In this document: positions 1 to 55,309 of the stretch, one piece after another
How positions within the stretch are numbered: position 1 is the stretch's first letter
Layout of the letters: every line of letters starts with the position of its first letter
Origin: Blasia pusilla
Lineage: Eukaryota
Direction: 5' to 3'
DNA length: 64,000 nt
Assembly: GCA_050084515.1 (NCBI GenBank)
Contig: CM114271.1
Coordinates: forward strand, 62,001 to 126,000
Notes under the pieces: model-generated
Seen by the model: only the letters and a program-made list of their open reading frames with translations
Told to the model about the DNA's origin: nothing
Database searches by the model: none
Program-made: the position numbers and the translations under genes

Positions 1-2389
1 AAAATATTTCTTGACGCCATTGTAAATTGCAAAGTTATGCATGCTTTGCAACAAACAATGCACAATTTGGAGATGCGAGCAAAAATTTATGGTCAATCTT
101 GCAAAACTTCCATTGCTAGGCATTTTTTAGGGTTAAATTGTTCAAACCCTAAACCAGCCGCCGTCGTCATACTCACCATCAACGGTCAACCATCATCATC
201 GATGGTGAACCATCACCATCAACGTTCAACTTTCACCATCAACGGTCCGCCGTCACCATCAACATCAATGGTCCACCGTCCACCGTCGGCCGCTGTCGCC
301 GCCTACCGCTGCTCAGAGCCGCGTTCCGCCGTTGTCCACCCTTTGGTTGCCATTTTTGCCATTACGAAGTGGAGGGTCTTCCACGAGGACCGTTGATTCT
401 TTCACTTGCGCCGCCATCACGTACTTTGTTTTGGCCGCCACCGTCATTGTAGTTTCGTCATCAAGCAGTGATGGCAGATGACCTCGGGTTATGGTTTTTT
501 AGTTTTCATTTCATGCTGCTATGCTGTAATTGGTAGCCGCTTAACAAAAATCGAGTACCATACCGTGATGCCCGTAGCCGCAACTGGACGCCGATTGGCG
601 TGCCGTGCCGCTCGTGGCCGCACCGTACCGTCTTGACCGCGGAGCCGCTCCTTCACTAAGGATCAGAGCGTGTGAATTGCTGATTGAGGAGGGTGACGCC
701 AAGTGCCGCACTCCATTACCGAGTTCCATGTCATTAAGAGCTATTCCGTGCCGTACTAGACTGCTAGACCTGCACTGTACATCGAGGAGGTTTGAGGGGC
801 GTCAATACGAGAGGAGTCCAACTTTCCGATTGGAGGAGTTGTCTTCACAACCGAGTTGGGGTCGAGATTTGCAGTTGTCGAGGAGCGACATCGATATTAT
901 TGTCAAGTTACCTATTCTGGTCTCTTAAGCTGCACGTGTGAGTGATTTTTGGGTATTGGGAAGTTATTTGGGATATTGTTTCGTGCTGATGCTGAGAGCA
1001 TCAATGATGTATGGATTTAGGGGACATAGACGTGTGTGGGATGTCCAGAGTTAAGGATGGTTTGTCGATGAGATGGTAGATCAGTTGATTTGCCGGACCG
1101 CGCCGCTTGTTGTCGTACAACACACGTCTCACTGAGAGAGTGTAGATTGGGTGCCGCATGTTTAGTTTTAGTGATTGAGGGATGGATCCTGATCAGAGTC
1201 GATGGGTCCTGATCAGAGTTTATGGAGAGTTGGTGATGTTGTTAGTATGCAGGCACGGAGGGCGATGGGAGAAGTGAGTGCGACGATTGCTGATGCTCAA
1301 GAGGGGCATGTGTCGAGCACGTTGTTGGGGGCGGCCACCATTGAGTACCAAGCTCCTTTATTTTCTGCTTCCGATGTTATGACGTTGGGAGGTACGCCCG
1401 CCCAGGTTTTTTAGCTGGCTGCTACACTATGTGAGCGTGGAGTTGGAGTTCTTGCATCACGTTCAAAGGTGATTGTAGAGGAGGTGCCCTTGGAGCGGAT
1501 GCTCGGGCGGTCCACGTCAGATTCATGGCAGGCTCCGGCTGCTAGGATGGCAGAGATGCCCGCTAGACCCGCGATAGAGCGTGCCATGGCTTCTCCTAGT
1601 GTTGTGTTGCTTGATAACCAGGGAGAGGTCTTCCAATTGGTGAGTCACGTAGGAAGAGCTTTTAGTCCGCAGCGTGTCTTATTGGATTCAGGAGCGCAAC
1701 CCTTGATGTTGGGGAATGTGTCATTCAGAGAATTGGGCTTGACGAGAGCCGATGTGGAGCGTTGTCCATTCCGGATAAAGACATCATTGGATGGAGCTAG
1801 TACCACACAGTATATCATCCGACAAGAGGTCATGGTGAGGATTCGCTCGAGACATCCTACAGATGAGTCGGTGGTGCGAGCCAAGGCAATACTGACTGAT
1901 GTAGAGTCCTACGACGTCTTGGTTGGTAGAGCAGTGTCATACCCGATGGGGTTTTCCGTGGATTACTGGGAGGAGTCGGCATCTTACGGACCAGGATGGC
2001 AGTCACGTGATAGGCACCTTAGCTCATTACCCGTTCGATTCATAGGTGCAATGATCGAGCGATGGCCAGGGGAGATGGCGACCTTAGCAGCATTTAGCAG
2101 TGCCATCACTTGGACTAGTGATTTGATTGAGGGACATGTCCATGGAGAGGATACTCCCGTTCCTAAAATTTTTATGGAGAGGAGTGTCATGGTAGCCGCA
2201 TTAGTCCATGGAGGAGAGGTGTTGCTTTGGGGCTCAACTGAGGAGCTTCGTTGCTTAGCCAGTGAGCATGTGCAGACCGTGTGGAGCAAGACGTTTGCAC
2301 TAGAGTGTGACAAGTTAGAGGAACCCTAGGTAGACAGATAGATCCCTTTGGATACCACCCCGATTGTGTGGTGCATCCCAAAGGAGGGT

Positions 2390-3310
2390 ATTCGAGTTTT
2401 GGATCTCTTTGGAGGGATCAACAATGGGTTAGCTGTTGTTTTGCACGCTGGAGTGCGCGTGCAGCAATACGTGTATGTGGAGATTCATGATGTTGCGAGG
2501 CGCGCTTCACTTCACCATGTGGCATAGTTATGCCTCCGTTTTCCCGACTTGTTGTCTGCGTCCGCCATTTAGGGCTACCAAAGTTCCCTACCGAGGGACA
2601 TTTCATTGTTGGGGGCGCATAGATTTGGTCATTGCTGGTTGGCCGTGCTAGGGAAAATCGAGTGTTGGACGAGGTAGCGGGCTAGCTGACACTCGGTCCA
2701 TGTTATTTTGGGAGATGATGCGGATCTTGCAATATTTACAGGAGCATGAGCCTTGTTTTTCAGCATAAATTTTGGAGAATGTGCATTTCGATTGGGCGAT
2801 TCGAGGTCCCGGGTGGTGACGAGTGCACATCAGGTGCGCGCATGGACCGACCCGACAGTGTTGTTAGATACGGCGAGTATAGGTTCTAGAGCACACCACC
2901 CACATCTTTAGTGGACCAACTTGGAACCACATGAGGTGTTGCGGAGGGCTTATGCAAGAGTGGAGTGTCCCTCCGATTTTTTGGTGGATTCTATATTGAT
3001 CCAGCCGCCGATCACAAAAAAGTGAGGCATGATGATCGACCGCCGTTGATTGTGGTCAACAAGATTGGCATGCCACGAGCAGCCTTTCCCATATTGGTGA
3101 GTTTTCCCGCTTCCTATGCATTCAAGGAGGCCAGACCTAGCTTGGTTTGGGATGACCAGGTACAGAGGTTGGTGGAGCCCAACGCCGATTAGCGATAGCA
3201 AGTGATGGGATTCCCCACAGGAGTGACGCTAATATCGTCACTATCGGAGGCATCACGACGTTATGTCTTGGGTCAGGCGATGGATTTGAACTGCTTGACA
3301 TGGATTTTTA
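2390..3310 (+). pseudogene. DNMT3-like C5 cytosine methyltransferase domain within gypsy pol (disrupted)
   Basis: Manual translation gives IRVLDLFGGI (motif I, 2390-2419), YVYVEI (II), IDLVIAGWPC*G (IV, PC at 2643-2648), RSMLFWEMMRIL (V) and ILENV (VI, 2769-2783). It continues GSRAHHPHL*WTNL (VIII), VMGFP (IX) and RRYVLGQAMDL (X). Confidence 0.9.
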
Positions 3311-6120
3311 GCTTATGAGTAGGTGAGCAACCTTGTTTGAGGATGCGAAAAATCATAAAAGTTGTGTTGGTGAGCCCCATGCCTATCGAGACGGTTGAGG
3401 CAGTGGTTCGGGGCAAGGCCCCGAGGAGATCGACACACCAGGGATGATTGGGAGAGACACCCTTGGACTTCTTGGGATGTTTTGCAGATACGCCAGGAGA
3501 TGGTAGCCACAGCATTGAGCGTGGTTTAGGGTACTACAAATGGAGATCCGATTTTGCAGTTGGTTGCAAGGGAGCAGTTGAGTTTTGTTGTCCGAGACAG
3601 GGTTGCATAATAGCAACCACTAATATCCGCGCGGGAGAGTCTTACCGTAGTCACGATGGAGACTTGGGAGCCAAATATGGGCCCTAAGTGACAGGAGGAG
3701 AGTGGCATCGAAAACACCAGTTCCTTAGGAGTTATAGGAGATGTTTTGCATTTAGTATGCATGATTTGGGTACGCTGAAGGGTCCAGGGATCCGCATTGA
3801 GTTGTCGAGTGACACGCCGATCTTCCAACAACCCTATAGGCATAGTGACATGGAGAGGGCTCTAATTCAAAGTAGGAGCCATGACTTGGTTGGAGTAGGA
3901 CTAATGGAGATGTCGCATGGAGAGTATGCATCTGCCACTGTCATGCTCGCCAAGAAGCTACATCCTGGCAAGTGCAAGTTCTTCTATGACCAAATTGAAT
4001 ACTTGGGTCATGCGATATACCCAGGGGGCCTTGGTGTGCAACAGACAAAGGTAGAGGCTATTTCACGCATTCCACACCCTATAGATGTGAGTCAAGTTCG
4101 TGCATTCATGGGATTGGCGAACTTCTATCGATGATACATCAAGGGTTCCGGTTTGATTGCGAAGCCGCTAACCTTGATGATCAAGGTGGATTAGGAGGGG
4201 CACTGGGGGGATGAGCAAGAGAAAGGATATCTGATACTCAAGGACAGATTGATGTCTGCGCCCATATTTAGGAGACTGATCAGGGGGCGTCCTTTCAAAT
4301 TGCATACGGATTGGAGCATGTTGGGGCTTGGAGCCGTGCTCACCCAACATGACGATGATGGTAGAGAGCTTGTGGTGGCTTATGCTAGTCGCTCAAACAA
4401 CGCTGCAAAGTCTAGCTTGTATGAGGGTGAGTGCTTGGCTGCAATGTGGGCTATCGCACATTTCAGATATTATCTATTTGGCATTCCCTTTACCATCATT
4501 ATTGATCATCAGCCACTTAAGTGGTTGATGGAGTCCGACAAGCTTATAGGGAAGCTTGCAAGGTGGGCTCTTTTGTTGCAGGAGTATGACTTCCAGGTGG
4601 TGCATAGACCCAGGACGCTCAACTAGGATGTAGATGGTTTGAGCCGTAACCCATGCCCGAGTCAGCGAGATGCGAATGGAGCTCGTTGGCATAGTGAGAG
4701 TGATGAGGAGTTGGTGCCAGGATAGCTTGCGTCAACCTATTTGGGCTTGTTGGCTATGGAGAGCCAAATTGCTGAGACTTCGATGGCGAGGTTTGATGGA
4801 GAATCCTTAGATCTAGAGGCCGGTGAGGAGACGACATGTGGCCGAGACATTCGACGATGGAGTGGTCTTGGAGTATCTGTGTACTGGCAGCGTCGCGAGC
4901 ACAGTGGATGCGAGAGAGTGGGATCAGATCCTACAACAAGCCAGATGGTTCGGGTGGGAGGGCACACATGTGTTGCGAGTGTGGGAGGATGGTAGAATGT
5001 GTGTAGTGCCTCATCCTTTGTAGAGAGCACGTTTGGTGCGTCATGCCCATGAGAAGTTGGGTCATTTTGGAGTGAAGCGGACGTACAGCTTGCTCCAAAT
5101 TCAGTATTGGTGTCGAGGCATGCACACTAACGTTCAATAGTTTGTTGCCACATGCATGGTGTGTGATCGAGTTCAAGCATCATTCAATGCTTCGACTCTA
5201 GAATTGCATCCACTTCAGATCATGGGTTTAGGTTAGAGATGGAGTTTGGATTTTTCAAGACCTTTGCCTTTGACGGAGCGCCATAGTCGTTATATGGTAG
5301 TCATGGTCGAGCACTTCTTGGAGTGGATAGAGTTGGTTGTATTTCTTGACAAAGCAAGTGAGGGAGTAACGTATGCCTTCCTAGATCAAGTGTTGAGTCA
5401 TTTTGGCACACCACCTAAGGTGTTGACAGACTAGGGTACAGAGTTCCGTGGGGAGTTTCAGGCCTTGTGTGATCAGGCACTGATCGACCACCGCAATACT
5501 TCGCGAGATCATCCTGAGGCGGATGAACTAGCGGAGCGGGTTGTGTAGATGGTGAAGAGAGGACTACGCAAGTATGGTTTGCAGAGAGGTCACCTAGGAG
5601 ATTGGGACCTTCAGTTGCCATGGTTGGCGATGGGATATAGATTTTGCAGGCAGGCATCCTTAACGTCTTTCTCACTGTACTTGTTGCTTTATGGCCGAGA
5701 GCCAGATTTACCTATGGCCATTTGTCGAGATGTTGGTGAGGTGTTGAACGTTGATGACCCTGATGTATGGATGCGAGCATGTTCTTAGAGGGCTCAGTTG
5801 TTTTGGAGAGTGATGCCCTTAGCTTTTGAGAGCTTGGCCATTGCGCAATATCAAGATACGTTGAGGTATGCGACTATCCGGAGGATCATCATCGTGAGAT
5901 TACGTCTACTTTGCAAATGACGGCACCCACGACATTTGAGGTGACTCCAAGGCGCACCATCTTGAGAGTGCGTCAGGTTTTCCCATCCCGTGTTCTCTTA
6001 TTGGAGGGACATGATGGTATGGTTTGGAAGGACCATGTGCGTAATTTTTTGCCATGTCATCTTCGAAACATTGACGGTATAGTTGATCCAAGCTTAGCAG
6101 TAGTTCTTGTAGACTTGTGG

Positions 6121-6258
6121 TGTATGTTGTTTGGCTCCGCCCGTGGTGCAACCACTATGCTAGTCTATGATGGGTGTTCGAGAGTATGGCATATGGCATG
6201 TTTGACGCCACCTCTCACTAGGGTTCCTCAGGGACGATGGATGTGTCCCAGATGTATA
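6121..6258 (+). pseudogene. PHD finger at the C-terminus of gypsy pol
   Basis: CMLF..MLVYDGCSRVWHMACLTPPLTRVPQGRWMCPRC follows the C4HC3 PHD pattern. Two Cys positions read F and Y, each one base from TGT. Confidence 0.88.
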
Positions 6259-8479
6259 TAGAGTAGGTAGTTTTACATTCCGACTTGTGTCTATGACATG
6301 GATGGCAAGAAGGCGACTAACGATGGGGCCACATGAGCACCCGGCCTTCTTGCTCTTAGCGTTCGAGAGATGTATGTCATGGTAGGTACGGATAGATGGC
6401 TATCTGGAGTTAGAGGGACCTAACCACCAACTAGGGGGGCGATTGGGGATATTTTGGTACTTCTTGTCTCGCTTTTTGGATGCCATGAGTTAGCATGGGA
6501 TCGTGCGTACGTGTTTGTGTGTGTATTCGGTGACAACAATGTATGTTGTGTAGCGATGTGTATGCAGACGACACCATGCAAGAATTGAAAAAGTTTTTGA
6601 ATTGTAAAAAGCCAAGTTTTGCTGATGAGGTATCTCAGATATTTTCTTCCAAGAATCATTATTAAAAATTAGTAAGATGTCTATGCGAGAATTGAAAAAG
6701 TGTTTGAAGGTAATTATTTTCATTAATGGTGTTCTCCAAAAGATTCATCTACAAGTGATCTCTCCAAAATATTCATATGCAAGTCATATGGACGATTCAA
6801 ATTTCGAGGATCTTTCCTTTGGCCATCCATTAGAATCTTTGTGATTTAATTTAAAATTAAATTTGATTTGAATATTTTTATTTATTAGATTTTTGTGTTT
6901 TAATGATAGAGTTTCCAATGATAATGTATATAGAAGTTTTATTCATACTCTAGATCATGAGAAAATACATGAGTAGACAAGTAAATGTGGACTTTTTGTA
7001 AAGTGTGACCTGGAGACTTATTAATAATCCTAGCAAAACCCGACCAAGCACGGAATTGAAACAAACAGAAATCAAACATCTTTGCAAGACCTGCCATTAC
7101 TGTGCGAACACAGACTTTTTCCGTGTGCAACCAAGTTTGCTCATCACCTTTACATTAGACCAAAGCTAGAGATAACCTCCTTATGATGGCTTGGATCATT
7201 TGCAACCGATCCCCATGACGAACAATAGGAAACACTTGACAAAAATTACCACCAAATACTGGGTTTTCTAAAATGTTGGTTTCTCAACATCCACTTCTCT
7301 AAGCACCACTAATCTGATCGGCCCCCTTGTATGAGGAGAAGCTTAGATTAATGGTTCTGACTTAGACGTCGAAGGAGTCATAATAATATGACACAAAGTC
7401 CTAAAGGAACCTTTGCTCTTCAAAGCATTTAACCACCACTGGGCAGTTATTTTTCCACTAGTCTTTCAATGTGAGGTTATTTCACCCCGTGAATCGTACA
7501 AACGCCATGGGAAGTCATACAATTGTTGTTTAGACGCCCATGAAGCGTGACTCGCCATGGGCTTAGTTTACTTCTATCTTCGTCATGTCCTTGGCATCTA
7601 GCAATATGGAATAATGAGGCTTCACTCTTATAAGCGTTTCACAATCAGTTGGTGGTTATTCCCCTCCTCTTTTTGGGAGAAAGGCTAGTGAAGTTAGCCC
7701 ATTATCCATAAGTCAACAAGAGCATAGAATTTCACTTGCCAGCCGGCCTACATTCCTTCTCCTCCTTTGGGAGTGAGGTGAGGCTACTAAGGTAATAAAA
7801 GGAAACAAATGCCTACTATGTACTCCATTTTAGACGATGCAAGACTAGCTAGGATGGTTGGTGGCTTAAATCGTGTCCCCTAGGCCCATATATGCATTGA
7901 ATTGTAATACCAGAAGGACTTTCAGGCAGCTTAAAAGAAATTCTATTCTATATTGCAATTATTTGGGTTGGCAAGACAACACGTTTATCCATGAATATTG
8001 AGAACATAAAATCTGAAGTCCTTTCCAAAATTTTACTCTAGGATAACTCCACTTTGATCAACTACCAAACCACCACTACTATTTTCTTTCCCATAGCCGC
8101 CGTGACTAACCGCCACTGGAGCAACATAGGTATTGGCCAAATAAGAAAAATACTCCACCCAATGATCACCACTATTCTCCGACCTCCTATTCTCATGCAA
8201 ATAAAGGCTGCTTCTATTTCCTACCTTCACCCCTAGACTTGATTGCTGGGTTCTAATACAATTGTGTACAACATTTCTTTTTGCCAACTGATCACCACCA
8301 TTATACGCCATATGATCCACACTTTTATTTGCCAACTCCATCATTTTCCTTTGTTGCTCACTCATAGGAGAAGTATATACACCATTGACATCCACTATAT
8401 CACCGCTATTATCCGCAAGATTGATAGTTCTTTGCACTACTTGGGGGCTATGTTTATGGATGTGAGATCTTCTCCTCAT

Positions 8480-10860
8480 GGGTCTTCCAACGTTTATATC
8501 TCATTTTAGATCCTCACAAATATTTTGGTTGTGCCCTTCTCTCAAGCAATGGGAACACCGCTGCCAGCCAATTCTCACATATCCTCTCCCTTTAGGTATG
8601 TCTCCACGTGAAGCAACGCCATCCATATTTATTTCCTAACTTGTTGCATAGTCATGTATTGGGTAGGATATTTTTCCTTGAACTTCTTTTAGTCGTTGCG
8701 ACCTTCTAGGTCCATTTCTAGAATACGCATACAACACGATGATGTCCTCATCGAAAGTTGCAACAGATGGGATAAGGTCATCACACTTTACCCTTGGTAT
8801 ACTATGCTATAGATGCGCTTGATGAAGTAATTGTTCCAAATCAATCAAATAGCTATTATGAATCCATTCCAGTGAACATATCTCAAGCCATTACATGAGT
8901 ACAAGGCCAACATTTATCTTGAAACTCAAGGTAGGAACATTGACACTTAGGACTCAATGAACATGGATTCATGCATATTTGTTGTTGAGATGACAAAAGC
9001 GCTTCATCGAGGAAATCACTTCAAACCCTTGACATATGCTCTCCTTATATCGATATTGAAGTAGGGCATAGGTGGTTACCGAGAAGTTGTATTTATGAGG
9101 GTGGTATGCTTCTAACTTCCTCTCGGTCTAAGTTTTCATCATATAGTTCCAAAACCCGCATGGAATGCCCAAAGGAGGAATGTCTGTAATTGGCTTGATG
9201 GCATAATTTATTACCTCTACTAGATTTGAACTAACTTTGCCATATCGAGGTAAGGAGAGTCCATACCTAGCATACTTTTGTGGTTCTATTTCTCTCGGAT
9301 ATAAGAAATAAGGTCACAAATCTTCTGTATATGATGCCTTTCCATCTCATTCAACCAAAATTCAAACCTATACACAATGAAGACGAATCCTAAAACCTTT
9401 GCCAAAAACCACCAACATTGAGTTTAGCAGGCAATATTGAGATTAGCCGCCAAGACTAAGATTAGGAGTCATGACTGAAATTAGGCACCATGACTCAAAT
9501 TAGACACTATTAAAGTGATGTTCAAAAGATTAAATAATCACTATCCAACACCTAGGATTAGTAGTGTTAGTCAATGATGGGAAATACTTACTTTTCCCTT
9601 GACCTTGCATAGAGGCATGCGATACAATACTCCTTTGCCACTTTTCCATATCTTGATTTCACATTTGCTCATAGATGTTAAGCACACATGCTATATATGT
9701 TATTGGAAAAAATGATATTAACACCATGTAGCAATCCCTTTTTTTATCTGAAATCATAACTATATTTGGATCATTAAGGCTAGGGATTGCAATCTTCAAA
9801 TGTGAGCAAATCATTCTCAATCCTTGTTGCTCTCACGAGGATAGATCCCATACGCTAGAATGATGGTGTTGGCATTCCTTTCCAACATGGAAGCTATGAA
9901 AATTTGTATTGGATATTTCCCATTTTTTGAATGGCATGCATCTAAGCAAGGTTGAACGGAAACAAACAAGTCCGGATATATCCTTCGACATGCCCCACTC
10001 ACACCCGGGCCCGCACCCGAGCCCACCACTTAGACCCGGGGCTGTCGAAGCCCACACCCATTGCGTGGCCCATAGGTTGGGCTCAACATGGGCTAGGGTG
10101 AGAAGGCGGGGGCTCAAGCCTGATTGGGTGCGGGCTTCCCGCGGGCACGTGCAGGCTACCGCGGGAAGGTGTGGGCTTAGAGCTAATTCGGCGTAGGCTA
10201 GGGCGGGCAAGTGTGAGCTTTGGGGGGGTAGGCACAGTCTTGAGGTGGGCAGGCGTGACCCATTCCAAATCCCAAACATCCCATTCATCCTTGAGCCCGC
10301 GGGCTCAGGGAGGAATCGCTTAAACCTACATTCCAAATCCCAAACATCCCATGTAGTGGTTGCAAGAGGGTCAACTTTGTTCACAACGTGAGTGAAGGCT
10401 AGAATCATGCGGAAACTAGCACATTCGACCCTATTTATCCAATTTCGACACTTCTCTTAGCATCTCCAAGCTAGGAAGTACCAAGTGTGCCTTCGGTAAT
10501 TCTGGGCAAGGACATTTATAAGCTTGCCCACAAGAATACTTGGTTGATTCACAACCCTCTATGTTAATACCATAGAAAGCCACTTGGCTTTATGGGTCGG
10601 GCGTGTCCATGTGTGAATACGGCCTAGACATGTGTGCTTTAGGTTACACATCGTTATTTAGTAGGCACTAGACTTCTTGTGTCAATGACATCTTACCCTC
10701 TACTCACAAATCTTCTTGATCTTGGGTCGTCCCTTCTCATTTTCCATACAAAGGTACCTTGAATATTCACCGCGTGCACCATTTCAAGTCATGGTGGGTA
10801 CCTCTTTATCCTTTGATATTTCTCCACGCTTCCTCCTTCTTTCAGCAAAATCCTTTGAGG
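8480..10860 (-). pseudogene. MULE/MuDR-type transposase, decayed
   Basis: LDACHSKNGKYPIQIFIASMLERNANTIILAYGI..ES.KDW (MULE DDE core), MISDKKKGL, SWIM finger CQCSYLEFQDKCWPCTHVMA and knuckle CSHCLREGHNQNIC. Confidence 0.85.
9993..10349. mobile_element. About 355-bp GC-rich insertion interrupting the MULE transposase, flanked by CATG
   Basis: CATG at 9989-9992 and 10350-10353. Removing the insert rejoins MULE-like sequence. It has an internal repeat CATTCCAAATCCCAAACATCCCA x2. The same insertion is in the other two copies (e.g. 37270-37620). Confidence 0.5.
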
Positions 10861-12439
10861 ATGGCAATACCTCAATGAAGGAACTTTTAAGGACAAGGCG
10901 GTATGGCCTCTTGGAATGTTGTGGATGCCATGGTGCGTGTGTACCAATATAATCCCTAGGAATTCTAGGGTCCTCATTTCTTTCTTGTTGCCCCCAAACA
11001 CTTGATGATGGAATGTCCATGCTTTGCTAGCGGAGAACGGCTACTAGAGGGAGTCTATGATTAGCGGTCAAGTGGGTATCCATGCTCTTGGGCAACAAGG
11101 CAATGAGAGACAAAATTTACTCTGATAAAAGCTCGCAATCTTTAGTCGTCGTTGCAGATTGGCTCTCCAAGGTAGGCCCCAATCCCAATGGACTTACATA
11201 TATGCACCTACCATATGTAGCACCCATGAAAGTTGCTATAGCTAGTTGAGAGAGAATTTTTGCTAACAATGTGTCTTGAAGGAATATTTTGGCGGCTTTT
11301 CTCCACCACTACCCCATCGTCTCTTAGACTATCAACTCTTGCATGTACAAGGCATTTTTTCTTTGAATACGCATCCTCTCCCGTCGTGCATTTGACTTCA
11401 TCACACGGGTACACACCATCATCTTTGATCCGCATGCTCATTTTCACTAAATGCTTCCCCTCGATTCTCTCAAGAAACCCTTTCCCTCTTATCTTAGCTC
11501 CATATCTGCAAGTCTGAAGCCAATGCCATTTCTTTGTCCGCACACAATTCTTTTCTCTGACACTAAGAGAGCATCTGATTCAACAATCAAGTGCAAACTC
11601 AAAGTCATCCAATCAGATTGTCTTTGGGTTGCCCAACATGTGAACAACGTTTGTAAGGAGTGGGTCCACAAGCGTATGAGCATCTCAAAAGTTCCACAAC
11701 CCCAAAAGAAAAGACTATACTTGCATTCCAACTTTTGGAATCCGCTGATTGCATTACAAAATATCAGCCTTGGTGATTATCTTGCCGAGGATTCCTTCTC
11801 ACCCGACGCTTAAAATGTAGGCAAGCTACCCTTCCTACCTTTCCAACATTCACACACTCACAACTTTGGAGTAACTAAAGAGTCCATACCTTCTTCTAGA
11901 CTTTATCCTTCAAGATTAGGCTTATTTTTGAATATGGAGGCTTTCCACAAGTCAACCACGGCTTTTGACTCTGACACCAAAGGCCGTCATCCATACACTG
12001 CATATTTCTTCTCATTGTCATCATCACCTATGAATAAGCTTTTCTCATCAAGAGGAAAATGGTATTTTCTCAACTCTCAAGCATTATCTTTGGACGATGT
12101 GCCCAATGTCACTCAAGCTGACTCCCTACCGTCAATTCTTAAAGCATCGAATCTAATGAACATGCCCGCATGAACAATGGGAGAATGATTGAGATTTTTG
12201 AATGATTAGCGGCAGCAAGTAAATTAAATGTGTAAGTAAAATTTAGAGATTAACCTTTGAACCACAACGGTGCTTTCACCCTAAACTATGCTCTCAATTC
12301 TTATCTTGTGTGCTCCCTCCGTACTCTACCGTATCTTATGTGGCATAGTATGAAAGCCTTACAAGGAATGAATTTTTGTGGGGGGTTGTATTAGCTAGGA
12401 AGTTTCCCTCCAAAGTTGCTTAAGAAGTCTCTCAAATTT

Positions 12440-13320
12440 TTCCGCCGTGTGTCTGGCGGCTATTTACTATATCAAGGGTTTGTGGCTATTTTCACTTGGC
12501 AACATTTTTCCGTAGTGTGTCAGGTGGAGTTGGCGGATTTTTAGAGTCTCAAGGACCCAACGTCTTTTATCACTTGGCGGCATTCTGCCTCATTGTGTTC
12601 GATGGAGATAGCGGCTTTTTACAGCATGGGGGACCTGAAGACTAATTTCACCTTGCGGCATCCTAAAAGCATTCATTGGTGAAGTTGACAGCTATTTACA
12701 ATATCGCGGAAAAGACAAATATTATCACTTGGCGGCATTCTTCTACAACGTGTTCATCGGAGCTTGCAACTATTTACAATATTGGAGGCTAGTAACAATA
12801 TCGAGGACTCGACAAATATTATCAATGATGGTTGCAAAAAAATTGACAAGTCCTTCCTTAGAACAAACATGGGTTCCAAGAGGTAGGACCCACACTTTAT
12901 AATCCATGATGGAACGCAAGGCAAGGATAAGTGGAGCAATGAGGGAGGAGGGAGTGGAGGTAGAGGGAGCAAGAAACGGGGGAGTATGGAACACAAAGGC
13001 AAGTAAGGGAAGGAGAAAGAAGGGAAAGGTGGGGCCCATATGGACAAGTCCTTCCATAGGACGGACATAAGTCCACCGACATGGACATGTCCATGGACAC
13101 GGACTTTGTTCACATGCAACCTTGTTATCAATAGGCGGCATTCTACAATAGTGTGTTTGGTGGAGCTATTTTGCCTCTATTTACATAATCGAGAACTCGC
13201 CGAACATTATCACTGGGCGAAATTCTTCTGCACTCTGTTTGGTGGAGCTAGTGGCTATTCACAATATCGGATACCCGGCGGCTGTTATCACTTGGCGGCA
13301 TTCTACGGCAGAATTCTATA
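12440..13320. repeat. Degenerate ~78-bp tandem repeat, interrupted by an unrelated block at ~12830-13115
   Basis: Core CACTTGGCGGCATTCT or variants near 12493, 12571, 12648, 12726, 13133, 13211 and 13289. Confidence 0.75.
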
Positions 13321-13365
13321 TTTATAGAATCCGGAACTTGGTGGTTACCATACGAGAGGAATATT

Positions 13366-13524
13366 GTGAACCAAAGTTGGGCTCTTATCCTAAACTGCAT
13401 TCTTTGTTCTTATCCAGGGGTGAACCATAGTTGGGCTCTTATCCTAAACTGCATTCTCTGTTCTTATCCAGGGGTGAACCATAGTTGAGCTTTCATCCTA
13501 AACTGCACTCCCTGTTCTTATCCA
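13366..13524. repeat. 54-bp tandem repeat, ~3 copies
   Basis: TGAACCA..GTTGGGCTCTTATCCTAAACTGCA..GTTCTTATCCAGGGG starts at 13367, 13421 and 13475. Confidence 0.92.
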
Positions 13525-27229: not shown

Positions 27230-27678
27230 AATAGCGACCTTGCTGCCCAAGGAGGACAAGAGTGGGACTCTCAAGATGGTGCGCCTTGCACTCACATTGA
27301 ACGTCGTGGGTACCGTGTGTTGCAAGTAGACATAGTCTCCTAATGAAACCTCCAAATAGTAGGTGGATAACCACCTCCTGAATAGTTGCATTCTTCAAAG
27401 TATCTCGATGTTGTGCAATCACCAAGTTCTCAAACGCCATGGGCATCACTCTCAAAATAACTCAGCCCTCGAGAATATACTCGCATCCATAAATCAGGTC
27501 ATCAAGGTTCAACACCTCACCAACATCTCTACTGAATGGCCTTAAAGTAAATTTGGCTCGACCATAAAAAAGCAAGTCACGGTGAGAAAGTCGCTAGGAT
27601 GCTGCATGTTGAATCTGATCCCATCGCCAACCACGGCAATCAAGGTCCCAATCTCTAGGTGACTTCTCTGCAAGCCAT
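27230..27678 (-). mobile_element. Integrase C-terminal fragment related to the DNMT-gypsy family
   Basis: The reverse complement TTGCAGAGAAGTCACCTAGAGATTGGGACCTT..TGGTTGGCGATGGGAT matches 5579-5640. ORF text RVMPMAFENLVIAQHRDTL and TTFNVSARRTILRV parallels 5807-5970. Confidence 0.8.
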
Positions 27679-45983: not shown

Positions 45984-46845
45984 TGTCACGTCTTTTAGGA
46001 TAGATTGGTGAGATCTAGTAGAGCGCCTTCGTGAGTAGTGGAGGACAAGCTCCGTAGGTCTAGGATGATCAACTGAGGCCTTGAGAAACTTGAGAGAGCA
46101 TGTTTCCCCTTCGTTTCGGCTCATTTGGAGCCATATTGAGGAACTTACTATTTCAGGTAAGTACCATTTTGAGTATATGATCAACTTTCTATTTTGTTAA
46201 GTGGCCCTTGACCTCCTACATCAAATCAAGAGCCAAAGAGGTGACTTGGGAGCATAGGTTAACATGGAGAGAGCTTGGGAGAGGGAGGGGATACTTCAAG
46301 GAGAGAGAGCTTGAGAGCTCATTCTCTCTTTGTTGAACCTCTTGGGATGAGGCGGCGGAGCTATGGTCTTTCTTGCCTTGTGTGTGTAACCCAAACCTCT
46401 CATTAGGAGAGTGGGTTTGGTTTGACATTGAGTAAGACATGTGAGAACTATGGTGTTGTGAGAGAGATTGGATCATATTTTACAAAGAGAGAATGAGTGA
46501 GTGAGAGAGCTTCATGGGGGAGCTTGTTGGTCACTCGTTGGTTTGGCAAGTTGGGGATCGTATTCCCCGTTCAGCGGTTCATGGGAGTGCTCACCGGCGT
46601 CAGAGCCGCTTACTTGTGATGTTTCCTTTGCCGATTTTTCGTGGGGAAGAGTGACACGCGGAAGTGCTGCCCAATTTTCGATAGGAATTGAGTATGGGGC
46701 GGATTGCTCCATGCCGGTGCTCTCATGAGCATCATGTAGCTTCCTTATTTGTCTTCTTATAGGTTTTATATTTTCTGGGGGAGAAATCAGCGCAGAAGCG
46801 TTGCCAAATTTTGTGTATTAGAAAGAGACATTGGGTTTTACGACA
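45984..46845 (-). mobile_element. Probable 3' LTR (~860 bp) with adjacent polypurine tract
   Basis: TGTC...GACA termini. On the minus strand AGAAGGGGAT directly precedes TGTCG. No TSD or partner LTR was seen. Confidence 0.45.
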
Positions 46846-48325
46846 ATCCCCTTCTGTTATTACTCGAATGTTTGATTCAAAATATTTCTTGACGCCATTG
46901 TAAATTGCAAAGTTATGCATGCTTTGCAACAAACAATGCACAATTTGGAGATGCGAGCAAAAATTTATGGTCAATCTTGCAAAACTTCCATTGCTAGGCA
47001 TTTTTTAGGGTTAAATTGTTCAAACCCTAAACCAGCCGCCGTCGTCATACTCACCATCAACGGTCAACCATCATCATCGATGGTGAACCATCACCATCAA
47101 CGTTCAACTTTCACCATCAACGGTCCGCCGTCACCATCAACATCAATGGTCCACCGTCCACCGTCGGCCGCTGTCGCCGCCTACGCCGCCGAGAGCGTTC
47201 GCCGTTGTCCACCCTTTGGTTGCCATTTTTGCCATTACGAAGTGGAGGGTCTTCCACGAGGACCGTTGATTCTTTCACTTGCGCCGCCATCACGTACTTT
47301 GTTTTGGCCGCCACCGTCATTGTAGTTTCGTCATCAAGCAGTGATGGCAGATGACCTCGGGTTATGGTTTTTTAGTTTTCATTTCATGCTGCTATGCTGT
47401 AATTGGTAGCCGCTTAACAAAAATCGAGTACCATACCGTGATGCCCGTAGCGCGAATCGGGCGCCGATTGGCGTGCCCGTGCCGCGGGTGGCACCCGCAT
47501 CCGTCTTGACGCGGAGCGCTCCTTCACTAAGGATCGAGCGTGTGAATTGCTGATTGAGGAGGGTGCGGGCAAGTGCCGCACTCCATTACGAGTTCCATGT
47601 CATTAAGAGCTATTCCGTGCCGTACTAGACCGCAGACTGCACCGTACATCGAGGAGGTTTGAGGGGCGTCAATACGAGAGGAGTCCAACTTTCCGATTGG
47701 AGAGTTGTCTTCACAACCAAAGTTGGGGTCGAGATTTGCGGTTGTCGAGGAGCGACATCGATATTATTGTCAAGTTACCTATTCGGTCTCTTGCCGCACG
47801 TGTGAGTGATTTTTGGGTATTGGGAAGTTATTTGGGATATTGTTTCGTGCGATCTTTGAGAGCATCAATGATGTATGGATTTGGGGACATAGAGCGTGTG
47901 TGGGATGTCGAGTTAAGGATGGTTTGTCGATGAGATGGTAGATGAGTTGATTTGCCGGACGCGCGCTTGTTGTCGTACAACACACGTCTTCGAGAGAGTG
48001 TAGATTGGGTGCCGCATGTTTAGTTTTAGTGATTGAGGGATGGATCCTGATCAGAGTCGATGGGTCCTGATCAGAGTTTATGGAGAGTTGGTGATGTTGT
48101 TAGTATGCAGGCACGGAGGGCGATGGGAGAAGTGAGTGCGACGATTGCTGATGCTCAAGAGGGGCATGTGTCGAGCACGTTGTTGGGGCGCCACCATTGA
48201 GTACCAAGCTCCTTTATTTTCTGCTTCCGATGTTATGACGCGTTGGGAGGTACGCCCGCCCAGTTTTTTAGCCGGGCGCTACACTATGTGAGCGTGGAGT
48301 TGGAGTTCTTGCATCACGTTCAAAG

Positions 48326-51300
48326 GTGATTGTAGAGGAGGTGCCCTTGGAGCGGATGCTCGGGCGGTCCACGTCAGATTCATGGCAGGCTCCGGCTGCT
48401 AGGATGGCAGAGATGCCCGCTAGACCGCGATAAGCGTGCCATGGCTTCTCCTAGTGTTGTGTTGCTTGATAACCAGGGAGAGGTCTTCCAATTGGTGAGT
48501 CACGTAGGAAGAGCTTTTAGTCCGCAGCGTGTCTTATTGGATTCAGGAGCGCAACCCTTGATGTTGGGGAATGTGTCATTGAGAATTGGGATTGCGAGAG
48601 CCGATGTGGAGCGTTGTCCATTCCGGATAAAGACATCATTGGATGGAGCTAGTACCACACGATATATCATCCGACAAGAGGTCATGGTGAGGATTCGGCT
48701 CGAGACATCCCTGAGATGAGTCGGTGGTGCGAGCCAAGGCAATCTTCGATGTAGAGTCCCTCGACGTCTTGGTTGGTAGAGCGATGTCATACCCGATGGG
48801 GTTTTCCGTGGATTACTTGGGAGGAGTCGGCATCTTACGGACCAGGATGGCGATCCGCGTGATAGGCACCTTAGCTCATTACCCGTTCGATTCATAGGTG
48901 CAATGATCGAGCGATGGCCGGGAGATGGCGACCTTAGCAGCATTTAGCAGTGCCATCACTTGGACTAGTGATTTGATTGAGGGACATGTCCATGGAGAGG
49001 ATACTCCCGTTCCTAAAATTTTTATGGAGAGGAGTGTCATGGTAGCCGCATTAGTCCATGGAGGAGAGGTGTTGCTTTGGGGCTCAAGCTGGAGGAGCCG
49101 TTGCTTAGCGGTGAGCATGTGCACCGTGTGGAGCAAGACGTTGCACTAGAGTGTGACAAGTTAGAGGAACCCTAGGTAGACAGATAGATCCCTTTGGATA
49201 CCACCCCGATTGTGTGGTGCATCCCAAAGGAGGGTATTCGAGTTTTGGATCTCTTTGGAGGGATCAACAATGGGTTAGCTGTTGTTTTGCATTTGGAGTG
49301 AGGCAAAGACAATACGTGTATGTGGAGATTCATGATGTTGCGAGGCGCGCTTCACTTCACCATGTGGCATAGTTATGCCTCCGTTTTCCCGACTTGTTGT
49401 CTGCGTCCGCCATTTAGGGCTACCAAAGTTCCCTACCGAGGGACATTTCATTGTTGGGGGCGCATAGATTTGGTCATTGCTGGTTGGCCGTGCTAGGGAA
49501 AATCGAGTGTTGGACGAGGTAGCGGGCTAGCTGACACTCGGTCCATGTTATTTTGGGAGATGATGCGGATCTTGCAATATTTACAGGAGCATGAGCCTTG
49601 TTCTTCAGCATAAATTTTGGAGAATGTGCATTTCGATTGGGCGATTCGAGGTCCCGGGTGGTGACGAGTGCACATCAGGTGCGCGCATGGACCGACCCGA
49701 CAGTGTTGTTAGATACGGCGAGTATAGGTTCTAGAGCACACCACCCACATCTTTAGTGGACCAACTTGGAACCACATGAGGTGTTGCGGAGGGCTTATGC
49801 AAGAGTGGAGTGTCCCTCCGATTTTTTGGTGGATTCTATATTGGATCCAGGCCGTCGATCACAGGCAGTGAGGCATGATGATCGACCGCCGTTGATTGTG
49901 GTCAACAAGATTGGCATGCCACGAGCAGCCTTTCCCATATTGGTGAGTTTTCCCGCTTCCTATGCATTCAAGGAGGCCAGACCTAGCTTGGTTTGGGATG
50001 ACCAGGTACAGAGGTTGGTGGAGCCCAACGCCGATTAGCGATAGCAAGTGATGGGATTCCCCACAGGAGTGACGCTAATATCGTCACTATCGGAGGCATC
50101 ACGACGTTATGTCTTGGGTCAGGCGATGGATTTGAACTGCTTGACATGGATTTTTAGCTTATGAGTAGGTGAGCAACCTTGTTTGAGGATGCGAAAAATC
50201 ATAAAAGTTGTGTTGGTGAGCCCCATGCCTATCGAGACGGTTGAGGCAGTGGTTCGGGGCAAGGCCGAGGAGATCGACACACCGGGGATGATTGGGAGAG
50301 ACACCCTTGGACTTCTTGGGATGTTTTGCGTGATCGCCAGAGATGGTAGCCCAAAGATTGAGCGTGGTTTAGGGTACTACAAATGGAGATCCGATTTTGC
50401 GGTTGGTTGCAAGGGAGCAGTTGAGTTTTGTTGTCGAGACAGGGTTGCATAATAGCAACCACTAATATCCGCGGGGAGAGTCTACCGTAGTCACGATGGA
50501 GACTTGGGAGCCAAATATGGGCCCTAAGTGACAGGAGGAGAGTGGCATCGAAAACACCAGTTCCTTAGGAGTTATAGGAGATGTTTTGCATTTAGTATGC
50601 ATGATTTGGGTACTGTTGAAGGGTCAGGGATCCGCATTGAGTTGTCAGTGACACGCCGATCTTCCAACAACCCTATAGGCATAGTGACATGGAGAGGGCT
50701 CTAATTCAAAGTAGGAGCCATGACTTGGTTGAGTAGGACTAATGGAGATGTCGCATGGAGAGTATGCATCACACCTTTGTCATGCTCGCCAAGAAGCTAC
50801 ATCCAGGCAAGTGCAAGTTCTTCTATGACCAAATTGAATACTTGGGTCATGCGATATACCCAGGGGGCCTTGGTGTGCAACAGACAAAGGTAGAGGCTAT
50901 TTCACGCATTCCACACCCTATAGATGTGAGTCAAGTTCGTGCATTCATGGGATTGGCGAACTTCTATCGATGATACATCAAGGGTTCCGGTTTGATTGCG
51001 AAGCCGCTAACCTTGATGATCAAGGTGGATTAGGAGGGCCTTTGGGGGATGAGCAAGAGAAAGGATATCGATACTCAGGATGATTGATGTCTGCGCCCAT
51101 ATTTAGGAGACTGATCAGGGGGCGTCCTTTCAAATTGCATACAGATTGGAGCATGTTGGGGCTTGGAGCCATGCTCACCCAACATGACGATGATGGAAGA
51201 GAGCTTGTGGTGGCTTATGCTAGTCGCTCAAACAACGCTGCAAAGTCTAGCTTGTATGAGGGTGAGTGCTTGGCTGCAATGTGGGCTATCGCACATTTCA

Positions 51301-53093
51301 GATATTATCTATTTGGCATTCCCTTTACCATCATTATTGATCATCAGCCACTTAAGTGGTTGATGGAGTCCGACAAGCTTATAGGGAAGCTTGCAAGGTG
51401 GGCTCTTTTGTTGCAGGAGTATGACTTCCAGGTGGTGCATAGACCCAGGACGCTCAACTAGGATGTAGATGGTTTGAGCCGTAACCCATGCCCGAGTCAG
51501 CGAGATGCGAATGGAGCTCGTTGGCATAGTGAGAGTGATGAGGAGTTGGTGCCAGGATAGCTTGCGTCAACCTATTTGGGCTTGTTGGCTATGGAGAGCC
51601 AAATTGCTGAGACTTCGATGGCGAGGTTTGATGGAGAATCCTTAGATCTAGAGGCCGGTGAGGAGACGACATGTGGCCGAGACATTCGACGATGGAGTGG
51701 TCTTGGAGTATCTGTGTACTGGCAGCGTCGCGAGCACAGTGGATGCGAGAGAGTGGGATCAGATCCTACAACAAGCCAGATGGTTCGGGTGGGAGGGCAC
51801 ACATGTGTTGCGAGTGTGGGAGGATGGTAGAATGTGTGTAGTGCCTCATCCTTTGTAGAGAGCACGTTTGGTGCGTCATGCCCATGAGAAGTTGGGTCAT
51901 TTTGGAGTGAAGCGGACGTACAGCTTGCTCCAAATTCAGTATTGGTGTCGAGGCATGCACACTAACGTTCAATAGTTTGTTGCCACATGCATGGTGTGTG
52001 ATCGAGTTCAAGCATCATTCAATGCTTCGACTCTAGAATTGCATCCACTTCACATCATGGGTTTAGGTTAGAGATGGAGTTTGGATTTTTCAAGACCTTT
52101 GCCTTTGACGGAGCGCCATAGTCGTTATATGGTAGTCATGGTCGAGCACTTCTTGGAGTGGATAGAGTTGGTTGTATTTCTTGACAAAGCAAGTGAGGGA
52201 GTAACGTATGCCTTCCTAGATCAAGTGTTGAGTCATTTTGGCACACCACCTAAGGTGTTGACAGACTAGGGTACAGAGTTCCGTGGGGAGTTTCAGGCCT
52301 TGTGTGATCAGGCACTGATCGACCACAGGAATACTTCGCGAGATCATCCTGAGGCGGATGAACTAGCGGAGCGGGTTGTGTAGATGGTGAAGAGAGGACT
52401 ACGCAAGTATGGTTTGCAGAGAGGTCACCTAGGAGATTGGGACCTTCAGTTGCCATGGTTGGCGATGGGATATAGATTTTGCAGGCAGGCATCCTTAACG
52501 TCTTTCTCACTGTACTTGTTGCTTTATGGCCGAGAGCCAGATTTACCTATGGCCATTTGTCGAGATGTTGGTGAGGTGTTGAACGTTGATGACCCTGATG
52601 TATGGATGCGAGCATGTTCTTAGAGGGCTCAGTTGTTTTGGAGAGTGATGCCCTTAGCTTTTGAGAGCTTGGCCATTGCGCAATATCAAGATACGTTGAG
52701 GTATGCGACTATCCGGAGGATCATCAGGGAGATTACGTCTACTTGCAACAGACGGCACCCACGACATTTGAGGTGACTCCAGGGCGCACCATCTTGAGAG
52801 TGCGTCAGGTTTTCCCATCCCGTGTTCTCTTATTGGAGGGACATGATGGTATGGTTTGGAAGGACCATGTGCGTAATTTTTTGCCATGTCATCTTCGAAA
52901 CATTGACGGTATAGTTGATCCAAGCTTAGCAGTAGTTCTTGTAGACTTGTGGTGTATGTTGTTTGGCTCCGCCCGTGGTGCAACCACTATGCTAGTCTAT
53001 GATGGGTGTTCGAGAGTATGGCATATGGCATGTTTGACGCCACCTCTCACTAGGGTTCCTCAGGGACGATGGATGTGTCCCAGATGTATATAG
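48326..53093 (+). mobile_element. Duplicate of the protease-DNMT-RT-RH-INT-PHD gypsy pol (DNMT ~49236-50156, PHD ~52953-53090)
   Basis: Same motifs, same stops and same RT deletion as 1469-6261. Confidence 0.93.
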
Positions 53094-55309
53094 AGTAGGT
53101 AGTTTTACATTCCGACTTGTGTCTATGACATGGATGGCAAGAAGGCGACTAACGATGGGGCCACATGAGCACCCGGCCTTCTTGCTCTTAGCGTTTGAGA
53201 GATGTATGTCATGGTAGGTACGGATAGATGGCTATCTGGAGTTAGAGGGACCTAACCACCAACTAGGGGGGCGATTGGGGATATTTTGGTACTTCTTGTC
53301 TCGCTTTTTGGATGCCATGAGTTAGCATGGGATCGTGCGTACGTGTTTGTGTGTGTGTTCGGTGACAACAATGTATGTTGTGTAGCGATGTGTATGCAGA
53401 CGACACCATGCAAGAATTGAAAAAGTTTTTGAATTGTAAAAAGCCAAGTTTTGCTGATGAGGTATCTGTATATTTTCTTCCAAGAATCATTATTAAAAAA
53501 TTAGTAAGATGTCTATGCGAGAATTGAAAAAGTGTTTGAAGGTAATTATTTTCATTAATGGTGTTCTCCAAAAGATTCATCTACAAGTGATCTCTCCAAA
53601 ATATTCATATGCAAGTCATATGGACGATTCAAATTTCGAGGATCTTTCCTTTGGCCATCCATTAGAATCTTTGTGATTTAATTTAAAATTAAATTTGATT
53701 TGAATATTTTTATTTATTAGATTTTTGTGTTTTAATGATAGAGTTTCCAATGATAATGTATATAGAAGTTTTATTCATACTCTAGATCATGAGAAAATAC
53801 ATGAGTAGACAAGTAAATGTGGACTTTTTGTAAAGTGTGACCTGGAGACTTATTAATAATCCTAGCAAAACCCGACCAAGCACGGAATTGAAACAAACAG
53901 AAATCAAACATCTTTGCAAGACTCGCCATTCTTTGTGCGAATACGACTTTTTCCGTGTGCAACCAAGTTTGCTCATCACCTTTACATTAGACCAAAGCTA
54001 GAGATAACCTCCTTATGATGGCTTGGATCATTTGCAACCGATCCCCATGACGAACAATAGGAAACACTTGACAAAAATTACCACCAAATCTGGGTTTTCT
54101 AAAATGTTGGTTTCTCAACATCCACTTCTCTAAGCACCACTAACTGATCGCCCCTTGTATGAGGAGAAGCTTAGATTAATGGTTCTGACTTAGACGTCGA
54201 AGGAGTCATAATAATATGACACAAAGTCCTAAAGGAACCTTTGCTCTTCAAAGCATTTAACCACCACTGGGCAGTTATTTTTCCACTAGTCTTTCAATGT
54301 GAGGTTATTTCACCCCGTGAATCGTACAAACGCCATGGGAAGTCATACAATTGTTGTTTAGACGCCCATGAAGCGTGACTCGCCATGGGCTTAGTTTACT
54401 TCTATCTTCGTCATGTCCTTGGCATCTAGCAATATGGAATAATGAGGCTTCACTCTTATAAGCGTTTCACAATCAGTTGGTGGTTATTCCCCTCCTCTTT
54501 TTGGGAGAAAGGCTAGTGAAGTTAGCCCATTATCCATAAGTCAACAAGAGCATAGAATTTCACTTGCCAGCCGGCCTACATTCCTTCTCCTCCTTTGGGA
54601 GTGAGGTGAGGCTACTAAGGTAATAAAAGGAAACAAATGCCTACTATGTACTCCATTTTAGACGATGCAAGACTAGCTAGGATGGTTGGTGGCTTAAATC
54701 GTGTCCCCTAGGCCCATATATGCATTGAATTGTAATACCAGAAGGACTTTCAGGCAGCTTAAAAGAAATTCTATTCTATATTGCAATTATTTGGGTTGGC
54801 AAGACAACACGTTTATCCATGAATATTGAGAACATAAAATCTGAAGTCCTTTCCAAAATTTTACTCTAGGATAACTCCACTTTGATCAACTACCAAACCA
54901 CCACTACTATTTTCTTTCCCATAGCCGCCGTGACTAACCGCCACTGGAGCAACATAGGTATTGGCCAAATAAGAAAAATACTCCACCCAATGATCACCAC
55001 TATTCTCCGACCTCCTATTCTCATGCAAATAAAGGCTGCTTCTATTTCCTACCTTCACCCCTAGACTTGATTGCTGGGTTCTAATACAATTGTGTACAAC
55101 ATTTCTTTTTGCCAACTGATCACCACCATTATACGCCATATGATCCACACTTTTATTTGCCAACTCCATCATTTTCCTTTGTTGCTCACTCATAGGAGAA
55201 GTATATACACCATTGACATCCACTATATCACCGCTATTATCCGCAAGATTGATAGTTCTTTGCACTACTTGGGGGCTATGTTTATGGATGTGAGATCTTC
55301 TCCTCATGG

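Follow-up and report, generated by a model that had tools for sequence, protein, structure and literature searches.

Does a retrotransposon in the genome of Blasia pusilla carry its own DNA methyltransferase, and is such an enzyme part of the element or a neighbour of it? This question is raised by a stretch of 64,000 nucleotides (positions 62,001 to 126,000 of contig CM114271.1, assembly GCA_050084515.1), referred to here as the window, in which an earlier note had described a gypsy retrotransposon at 1469-6261 with a DNMT3-like cytosine methyltransferase inside pol. Our analysis indicates, with a probability of roughly 0.85, that this locus (copy 1) is what remains, truncated and dead, of a member of a Ty3/gypsy-type family whose pol includes a DNMT3-like domain and a PHD finger and whose ends have the layout A-coding-B-A-B. 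The kind has been known since 2018 as Gypsy-DNMT3, and the locus is a further, dead member of it. The reports from dinoflagellates and a charophyte to which the note had referred are those of de Mendoza et al. 2018 (PMC5890265), which include KnitGypsy-Dnmt3 of Klebsormidium nitens; the naming 'streptophytes (Gypsy-DNMT3)' came later (bioRxiv 10.64898/2026.05.21.726589), and DNMT3 embedded in transposable elements of streptophytes is cited in PMC12344493. The unusualness of the element for land plants had been overstated: the kind is published, and public bryophyte annotations already hold relatives.

The evidence begins with the methyltransferase itself. Stop-to-stop open reading frames (ORFs) and a three-frame translation of 1-9000 revealed a degraded retroelement pol on the plus strand. 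All eight cytosine-5 (C5) methyltransferase motifs that had been claimed at 2390-3310 are present in the claimed order, reading GIRVLDLFGGI, YVYVE, IAGWPC, LFWEMMRIL, ILENV, RAHHPHL*WTNL, MGFP and LGQAMD, which is the C5 order from I to X. Motif I indeed lies in the frame of the upstream protease ORF (position modulo 3 equal to 2) with two point stops between them, and the C-terminal part of the methyltransferase (3022-3414) shares its frame with the reverse transcriptase (RT) and RNase H at 3688-4710. When one of the three frames was read through with stops written as X, the profile PF00145 (DNA_methylase), which had been suggested as a check, gave a significant match above its curated cut-off on 2301-3350 (E 6e-8, 32.9 bits, cut-off 22; one frame, motif IV-VI core alone) and a match of 3.7e-8 on the duplicate of copy 1 at 49152-50201. 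The short stop-free pieces scanned singly gave no PF00145 match, and fragmentation thus hides the domain from the ORF track, as had been supposed; the C-terminal half of the methyltransferase alone gave no Pfam match at E<=0.1.

In a frameshift-aware alignment, 198 of 344 aligned residues of 2330-3387 are identical to amino acids (aa) 860-1215 of the Marchantia relative P0154, an intact gene model of 1278 aa in a cluster of 18 members. Searched against all solved structures, P0154 gave 27 matches at E<=0.01, of which 25 are DNMT3A/B/C (best 1.7e-8); M.HaeIII scored 1e-3, and 4onj, entered as 'DNA methyltransferase' in the table and taken by us to be a plant DRM enzyme, scored 2.6e-3. The segments IRVLSLFDGI and AHRARYFWGNL of DNMT3A align with LLDLFGGI and AHRARLWWTNL of the family. 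Judged by these structure matches, the predicted domain is closer to DNMT3 than to the other C5 classes, and the description of it as DNMT3-like and unpermuted from I to X stands. An alignment of 142 domains together with the window sequences has motifs I, IV (PCQ), VI (ENV), VIII (RxR), IX and X in colinear positions; 60 columns are at least 80% conserved across the 142 domains and include every catalytic motif (among them GG..GL, AGWPCQ, ENV, DAA..GS.AHR.R..WTN and ERERAMG). Copy 1 keeps 43 of the 53 conserved columns that can be read in it, and element B, a diverged family member in the window, keeps 36 of 37. The alignment shows conservation of the predicted catalytic motifs from chlorophytes to bryophytes. 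Scans of 13 polyproteins reported neither PWWP nor ADD; of a DNMT3 only the catalytic domain is present in them, with the PHD finger placed at the opposite end of pol. In the protein atlas, the clusters found were 'C-5 methylase, Streptophyta' and viral methylases.

To what kind of element does this domain belong? Protease (PR), RT, RNase H (RNH) and integrase (INT) follow one another in the Ty3/gypsy order, with the methyltransferase (DNMT) inserted after the protease (Table 1), and the RNase H is of the gypsy type, in agreement with the assignment in the earlier note. The protease ORF is intact (304 aa), with a weak RVP_2 match (E 0.22); P0154 aa 514-1090 matches 1313-2998 with 42% identity (tblastn), and Asp_protease_2 or gag-asp_proteas occupies the protease position of relatives (P0024, and others according to precomputed Pfam annotations). 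The integrase was assigned through tblastn matches of the relatives P0049, P0017 and P0178, and Pfam, run on the relatives, detected PF17921 in two of them (P0049, P0017) and PF00665 in three (P0049, P0040, P0178); the region is also 64% identical over 346 codons (tblastx) to that of L044, a repeat-flanked relative on a metagenome contig. At the integrase C-terminus, where chromoviruses have a chromodomain, a PF00628 PHD finger is found instead, with CHD4, KDM5A/B (PHD1), PHF21A, PHF12, KAT6A, AIRE and UHRF1 as its best solved-structure matches. At the other end, 1-1312 is colinear with element coordinates ~1630-2900 of L044. No gag-type or other Pfam family was found in three frames of 1-1400, nor any tblastn match of the N-terminal 513 aa of P0154 in 1-1312, so that this part can be called gag only presumptively. 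The predicted family polyprotein therefore reads gag?-protease-DNMT3-like methyltransferase-RT-RNase H-integrase-PHD finger. The extent given before, 1469-6261, is too short, as the element passes the left edge of the window and ends at ~6573; nor does the RT follow the methyltransferase directly, for ~290 bp of linker come between 3387 and 3679, where RT similarity begins, and the core of the RT is deleted.

These data raise a further question: is the methyltransferase an integral part of pol or a separate insertion, as the earlier note had allowed? The C-terminal half of the element B domain was used as a query against 1.84 billion representatives (HMMER), yielding 777 proteins at E<=1e-3 (410 at <=1e-10, 27 at <=1e-30), a large number of which measure 1000-3456 aa. 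The named relatives come from Marchantia polymorpha (at least 17 gene models), Calypogeia fissa, Sphagnum fallax and Closterium. No vascular-plant name occurs among the 43 + 60 + 100 matches listed, and no K. nitens protein appears by name among those listed, the best 150 of the 777 representatives carrying no names; two matches named as bacterial metagenome-assembled genomes were taken as misbinned eukaryotic contigs. When the six domains from protease to PHD finger were located in 229 relatives with phmmer, the order of the window (PR-DNMT and/or DNMT-RT in one ORF) was found in 64 proteins and a second order (RNH-DNMT and/or DNMT-INT) in 87; 77 showed the methyltransferase only, and one INT-PHD only. 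Single-ORF relatives include P0056 (PR-DNMT-RT-RNH-INT, 2188 aa) and P0192 (DNMT-RT-RNH-INT-PHD), and Pfam finds DNMT, then RT, then RNase H in the Marchantia protein P0164. Within the window, the methyltransferase C-terminal half of element B (32536-33180) starts at ILENV, runs in one frame with 4 stops and is identical to P0154 at 136 of 213 residues; RT (RVT_1, 3.7e-19) and then RNase H (4.3e-15) follow it, and the methyltransferase-to-RT junction is the same as in copy 1. The one-ORF relatives place the domain inside pol between protease and RT, as had been claimed, and together with the element B junction they contradict a separate insertion.

A domain tree (FastTree) was built from the 142 domains and two window read-throughs; the copy 1 row, in the tree and in the alignment, holds 2529-2620 in the wrong frame, and the placement of element B is independent of that. 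Both window rows group with Marchantia, Calypogeia and Sphagnum in a clade of 19 rows (support 99). A single change separates the two domain orders, all 73 second-order rows lying within an 88-row clade (support 99); the second order (RT-RNH-DNMT-INT-PHD) occurs in the chlorophytes Haematococcus lacustris and Monoraphidium neglectum and in a record labelled Chrzof1. The relatives and their tree show that the methyltransferase belongs integrally to the pol of this family and has been inherited vertically with it. A metagenome scan with P0242, which stands beside the Sphagnum model in the tree, gave 69 loci, and the same scan with P0056 found no relative. Dozens of metagenome contigs (L001-L047) were seen to hold relatives 74-82% identical in protein to P0242.

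Where does the element end? Searches within 40000-56000, and of 6201-6700 and 1-1500 against the window, detected neither a pair of long terminal repeats (LTRs) nor an inverted repeat. Three of 14 metagenome loci examined (L044, L045 and L036) have the domain enclosed by direct repeats that measure 169-342 bp and are spaced 7.1-8.7 kb apart. The methyltransferase that the repeats of L044 and L045 enclose is colinear with the window; these repeats (A) start with TGTCA.., end with ..TTTTCA and are followed, after the 3' copy, by a further repeat (B). The 5 bases flanking the L044 repeats differ from each other by eye. The B repeat of L044 (10238-10349 = 10693-10804) is identical at 105 of 112 positions and that of L045 (14485-14600 = 14935-15052) at 104 of 116; this segment of ~115 bp thus stands both before and after the 3' repeat, which gives the layout A-coding-B-A-B. 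Copy 1 can be followed into the first B: 6400-6448 matches L044 10193-10243 at 45 of 49 positions, and 6511-6573 matches L044 10743-10805 at 46 of 61 (score 33; maximum of 200 shuffles, 27). Past 6573, 924 DNA reads of other copies continue as TGTCAC..., the start of A, and ahead of 6442, 497 reads show the end of the A repeat. The A-B-A-B arrangement is therefore seen through relatives and host read junctions, the window copy lacking A2 and B2. The A-start motif has a single match in the window (45984-46011, 2 mismatches) and none in 100 shuffles, and the A-end sequence taken from the reads before 6442 resembles 46451-46483 by eye. The motif lies upstream of the duplicate, and thus copy 2 presumably has its 5' repeat; both copies stop at the B1/A2 junction. 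No primer-binding-site-like match to tRNA-Met was found near 45900-47500. The 45/49 stretch entering the B repeat stands out against the L044 proteins, which are only ~55-65% identical, and 6400-6448 may be a cis-acting site, for example a priming tract.

To place the locus among its relatives within the host, reads from one genomic run and three RNA runs of the same species were mapped to 1-9000 at 90% likeness. Mean DNA depth over 1201-6300 (both orientations) is ~400 versus ~1.75 in seven flank bins, a ratio of ~230; the flank bins exclude a further repeat at 7201-7500. The 5' part at 1-1312 is likewise repetitive, with a depth of 82-268 versus ~1.7 in the flanks. Of 29251 DNA reads, 27086 are 90-95% alike to the window. 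The depth and the reads point to a family with a few hundred copy equivalents in the host, a rough figure because many reads fit only in part. The first RNA mate is mostly of the minus strand in all three runs (at 3901-4200, depths of 37-40 versus 0.4-3). Nearly all RNA reads are only 90-95% alike to the window (1272 of 1347, 1490 of 1617 and 1407 of 1488) and so come from other copies; they show that other family copies are transcribed, in the sense direction provided that a conventional stranded library was sequenced. Ten RNA reads share a joint 2619>3037, which skips 417 bases and has 21 other letters between. A second joint, at 4405-4581 (17 reads), skips 175 bases with 26 other letters between. 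Both joints occur in RNA only and were not seen in the DNA run at ~1/100 sampling; in some of the copies that are transcribed, other sequence seems to stand in for the methyltransferase core and for part of the RNase H.

The window copies themselves are fossils. The methyltransferase of copy 1 has 9 in-frame stops (2339, 2525, 2570, 2649, 2766, 2909, 3190, 3196 and 3316) and 4 frameshifts (2621, 2790, 3002 and 3018), because of which copy 1 is incapable of making any enzyme. Window positions 1-17194 correspond to 46879-64000 with 98.3% identity over 17239 columns, a 17-kb direct segmental duplication that reaches both window edges, and the two near-identical elements therefore count as one insertion. 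In the duplicate methyltransferase (49176-50233), all 9 stops lie at the copy 1 offsets, with 3 frameshifts; thus, the domain was dead before the duplication. The RT has lost ~430 bp of its core: P0164 aa 704-793 align with 3688-3957 and aa 899-1139 with 3955-4710, ~105 aa (794-898) are missing, and L044 5610-6041 is without counterpart at 3955-3957. At this joint, 884 DNA reads and 56-57 RNA reads of other copies continue into different sequence. In an alignment with KDM5A, two cysteine positions of the PHD finger are F and Y in the window copy. Compared with the host reads, the window has A/T where the family has G/C at 176 + 174 places and the reverse at 54 + 54, a bias that is the C-to-T pattern expected from deamination of methylated cytosines.

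Could the methyltransferase nevertheless lie outside the element, as a host DNMT3 pseudogene or a captured fragment beside or nested in an ordinary gypsy copy? In its favour, the copy 1 domain is spread across three frames, the window shows no pair of LTRs around it, and the near-identical second copy adds nothing, being part of the same duplication. Against this stand the same junction in the diverged element B, the single ORFs of 64 relatives that join PR to DNMT or DNMT to RT, the repeats of L044 and L045, which enclose the domain, and the grouping of both window rows in a strongly supported clade of element-borne domains. The host reads also speak against it: DNA depth is 86-321 over the methyltransferase bins (2401-3300) versus ~1.75 in the flanks. 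We consider an origin outside the element highly improbable.

If the enzyme belongs to the element, what would live members gain from it? One possible, if somewhat doubtful, answer is self-methylation, in which the element's DNMT3-like enzyme would act on its own cDNA or fresh insertion. The element protease would cut the polyprotein, and the methyltransferase, remaining in the company of RT and integrase, would set de novo methylation on the newly made double-stranded cDNA or on the fresh insertion; the integrase-borne PHD finger would steer the complex to chromatin with unmethylated H3K4 and hence integration away from active promoters, so that new copies would enter the genome already resembling silent host DNA. 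Several observations weigh against this. All three window methyltransferases are broken, as are the methyltransferase stretches of all 21 metagenome copies checked, and what directly speaks for live copies is intact gene models, P0154 among them, and the RNA reads. The sense orientation of these reads assumes a standard dUTP-type library, their depth is 0.9-8 over the methyltransferase bins versus 20-40 over protease and RT (DNA depth dips there too), and the joint 2619>3037 removes the catalytic core in some transcripts. Protease cleavage, packaging and the histone preference of the PHD finger are steps that we infer, the last from the matched PHD fingers, most of which are readers of unmethylated H3K4. 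As a precedent, Dnmt3 domains borne by DIRS elements methylate CG de novo in yeast, and cDNA self-methylation has been proposed for these elements by de Mendoza et al., whereas the KnitGypsy-Dnmt3 domain gave no methylation in yeast, a test that its authors call inconclusive (PMC5890265).

That negative result can also be read to mean that the domain is real but does not methylate DNA, having instead an RNA target, serving as a DNA- or chromatin-binding module, or interfering with host DNMT3 complexes. RNA methylation has been raised for a DNMT borne by a long interspersed nuclear element (LINE) (PMC5890265), and the lack of PWWP and ADD in the polyproteins scanned fits such a role. The yeast test says little, however, because human DNMT3B was equally negative in it (PMC5890265), and the catalytic set (motif I, PCQ, ENV, RxR, IX-X) is kept in the 142 chlorophyte- and streptophyte-type domains, which disfavours a mere binding module because binding needs no full catalytic set. 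A function of this sort appears quite unlikely to us. The enzyme might also act on the host genome, either around the target site or in trans, remodelling chromatin or adding de novo methylation. The finger that closes the integrase is similar to PHD readers of histone tails, and a family that is transcribed and numbers hundreds of copies could supply the enzyme in quantity; yet the methylome of K. nitens is land-plant-like despite its elements (PMC5890265), and we regard action on the host as unlikely.

How does the family compare with known systems? Like KnitGypsy-Dnmt3, it has an unrearranged DNMT3-type domain in a gypsy-type Pol ORF (here in intact relatives, the window copies being broken), DIRS-type A-coding-B-A-B repeats (there according to the figure legend, here in L044, L045 and the host reads) and catalytic residues conserved in intact members. 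Unlike that element, it ends in a PHD finger, a term with 0 occurrences in the text of PMC5890265; it has hundreds of copies, compared with few in K. nitens, and its nearest named relatives are bryophytes rather than a charophyte. The chlorophyte RT-RNH-DNMT-INT-PHD elements, together with many metagenome contigs, share a homologous methyltransferase (35-45% identity), the integrase and the PHD finger, but their methyltransferase lies after RNase H and before the integrase and not between protease and RT. SymbioDIRS-Dnmt3 of Symbiodinium likewise has a DNMT3-type domain in Pol and the A-coding-B-A-B layout; it differs in having a tyrosine recombinase instead of a DDE integrase, its acquisition is judged independent by the authors, and its domains methylated CG in yeast (PMC5890265). 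Chromoviruses also bear a histone-reader module at the integrase end, which directs their insertion to marked chromatin (preprints), although theirs is a chromodomain without a methyltransferase, compared with the PHD finger here. The EpiLTRs of Cymbomonas and Euglena are LTR elements that combine a DNA methyltransferase with a chromatin reader; in their case these are an adenine methylase, a DNMT4-related cytosine methylase and a chromodomain, and their acquisition is distinct from that of Gypsy-DNMT3 according to the authors (bioRxiv 10.64898/2026.05.21.726589). A literature search returned nothing relevant on DNMT-bearing retrotransposons of bryophytes or Marchantia, although supplements may hold some, and no account of the PHD finger, of two domain orders with a single switch or of chlorophyte members, although figures and supplements may. 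The main text of PMC6317226, a classification of plant LTR retrotransposons, has 0 occurrences of methyltransferase, PHD and Marchantia.

Taken together, these comparisons allow a broader reading, which we put forward tentatively and at a little less than even odds for all its parts jointly. According to it, an old, Viridiplantae-wide gypsy-type lineage combines a DNMT3-like writer, a PHD reader and A-coding-B-A-B ends; the writer moved once within pol, separating the chlorophyte type from the streptophyte type; and the lineage persisted when plants colonised land and continues to multiply in bryophytes, as seen in the hundreds of transcribed copies of the host and in many near-identical gene models of Marchantia. 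If this is true, an enzyme of element origin would add de novo methylation to early land-plant genomes. DNA methylation is the main weapon of the host against transposons, and for this reason a transposon that carries a methyltransferase is a paradox. The published case is a single charophyte alga in which copies are few and the test of activity was inconclusive (PMC5890265); the family found here is high-copy and transcribed. The relatives in Marchantia would make it testable whether the element's DNMT3 methylates its own cDNA and whether this helps or restrains the element. Marchantia is a genetically tractable liverwort. The PHD finger and the single relocation of a domain offer handles on how retroelements assemble chromatin toolkits, and the value of the fossil locus in the window is that of a pointer to the family.

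Table 1 Members of the DNMT3-bearing family in the window, with the parts of copy 1 listed from 5' to 3' (coordinates refer to the window)
Feature	Position	Strand	Basis or remark
Copy 1, leader and presumed gag region (5' internal part)	1..1312	+	cut by window edge
Copy 1, aspartic protease region and linker	1313..2329	+	ORF 1415-2329, D-S-G at 1685-1693
Copy 1, putative DNMT3-like C5 cytosine methyltransferase, pseudogenised	2330..3387	+	PF00145, motifs I-X, alignment to P0154
Copy 1, RT remnant with core deletion at 3955-3957	3679..4134	+	tblastn P0164
Copy 1, RNase H, Ty3/gypsy type	4195..4710	+	PF17917 2e-31, PF17919 1e-24 on ORF 4195-4626
Copy 1, integrase (zinc-binding H2C2 and DDE core), with stops	4844..5881	+	tblastn P0049 aa 1244-1546, P0017 aa 1062-1397
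Copy 1, C-terminal PHD finger of pol, in chromodomain position	5911..6261	+	PF00628 4.9e-8 on ORF 5830-6261
Copy 1, B1 repeat; copy 1 ends at B1/A2 junction	6443..6573	+	alignment to L044, read junctions
Fourth family fragment, C-terminal integrase part	27267..27678	-	77% nucleotide identity to 5574-5969
Element B, diverged family member, 71-75% nucleotide identity	32536..34580	+	truncated in methyltransferase at motif VI and in RNase H
Presumed 5' A repeat (LTR-like) of duplicate copy	45984..46486	+	start supported, end approximate
Duplicate of copy 1	46879..53405	+	part of segmental duplication

The minus-strand integrase fragment in Table 1 was also recovered by weak tblastn matches of P0049 aa 1484-1587. 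Besides the 17-kb duplication, the window contains an inverted one of 5.3 kb (7779-13033 = 34581-39824, 96%), which adjoins the truncated end of element B at 34580; given the two duplications, either the region is rearranged or the assembly is in error. In the 5' region of the element, units of 20 bases are repeated in tandem at 47051-47150 and in the matching stretch near 170-270, where the DNA reads show several length variants with joints at 162-329.

Further features were noted elsewhere in the window. Rfam gave 0 matches in the window. LINE-like (non-LTR) RT ORFs lie at 15750-16772, 20420-21863 and 62564-63926; RVT_1 matched a 340-aa LINE-like ORF with 4.6e-9 and a second, diverged copy at 20420-20950 with E 0.0024. 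On the minus strand, a 200-aa ORF at 54861-55463, found also at 8033-8500, has a CX2C...H-type motif (RCSHCLREGHNQNIC) and no Pfam match, and may be a remnant of another mobile element. Just outside copy 1, the short unrelated repeat at 7201-7500 reaches a DNA depth of ~300 with some RNA cover, and many reads end at 7392.

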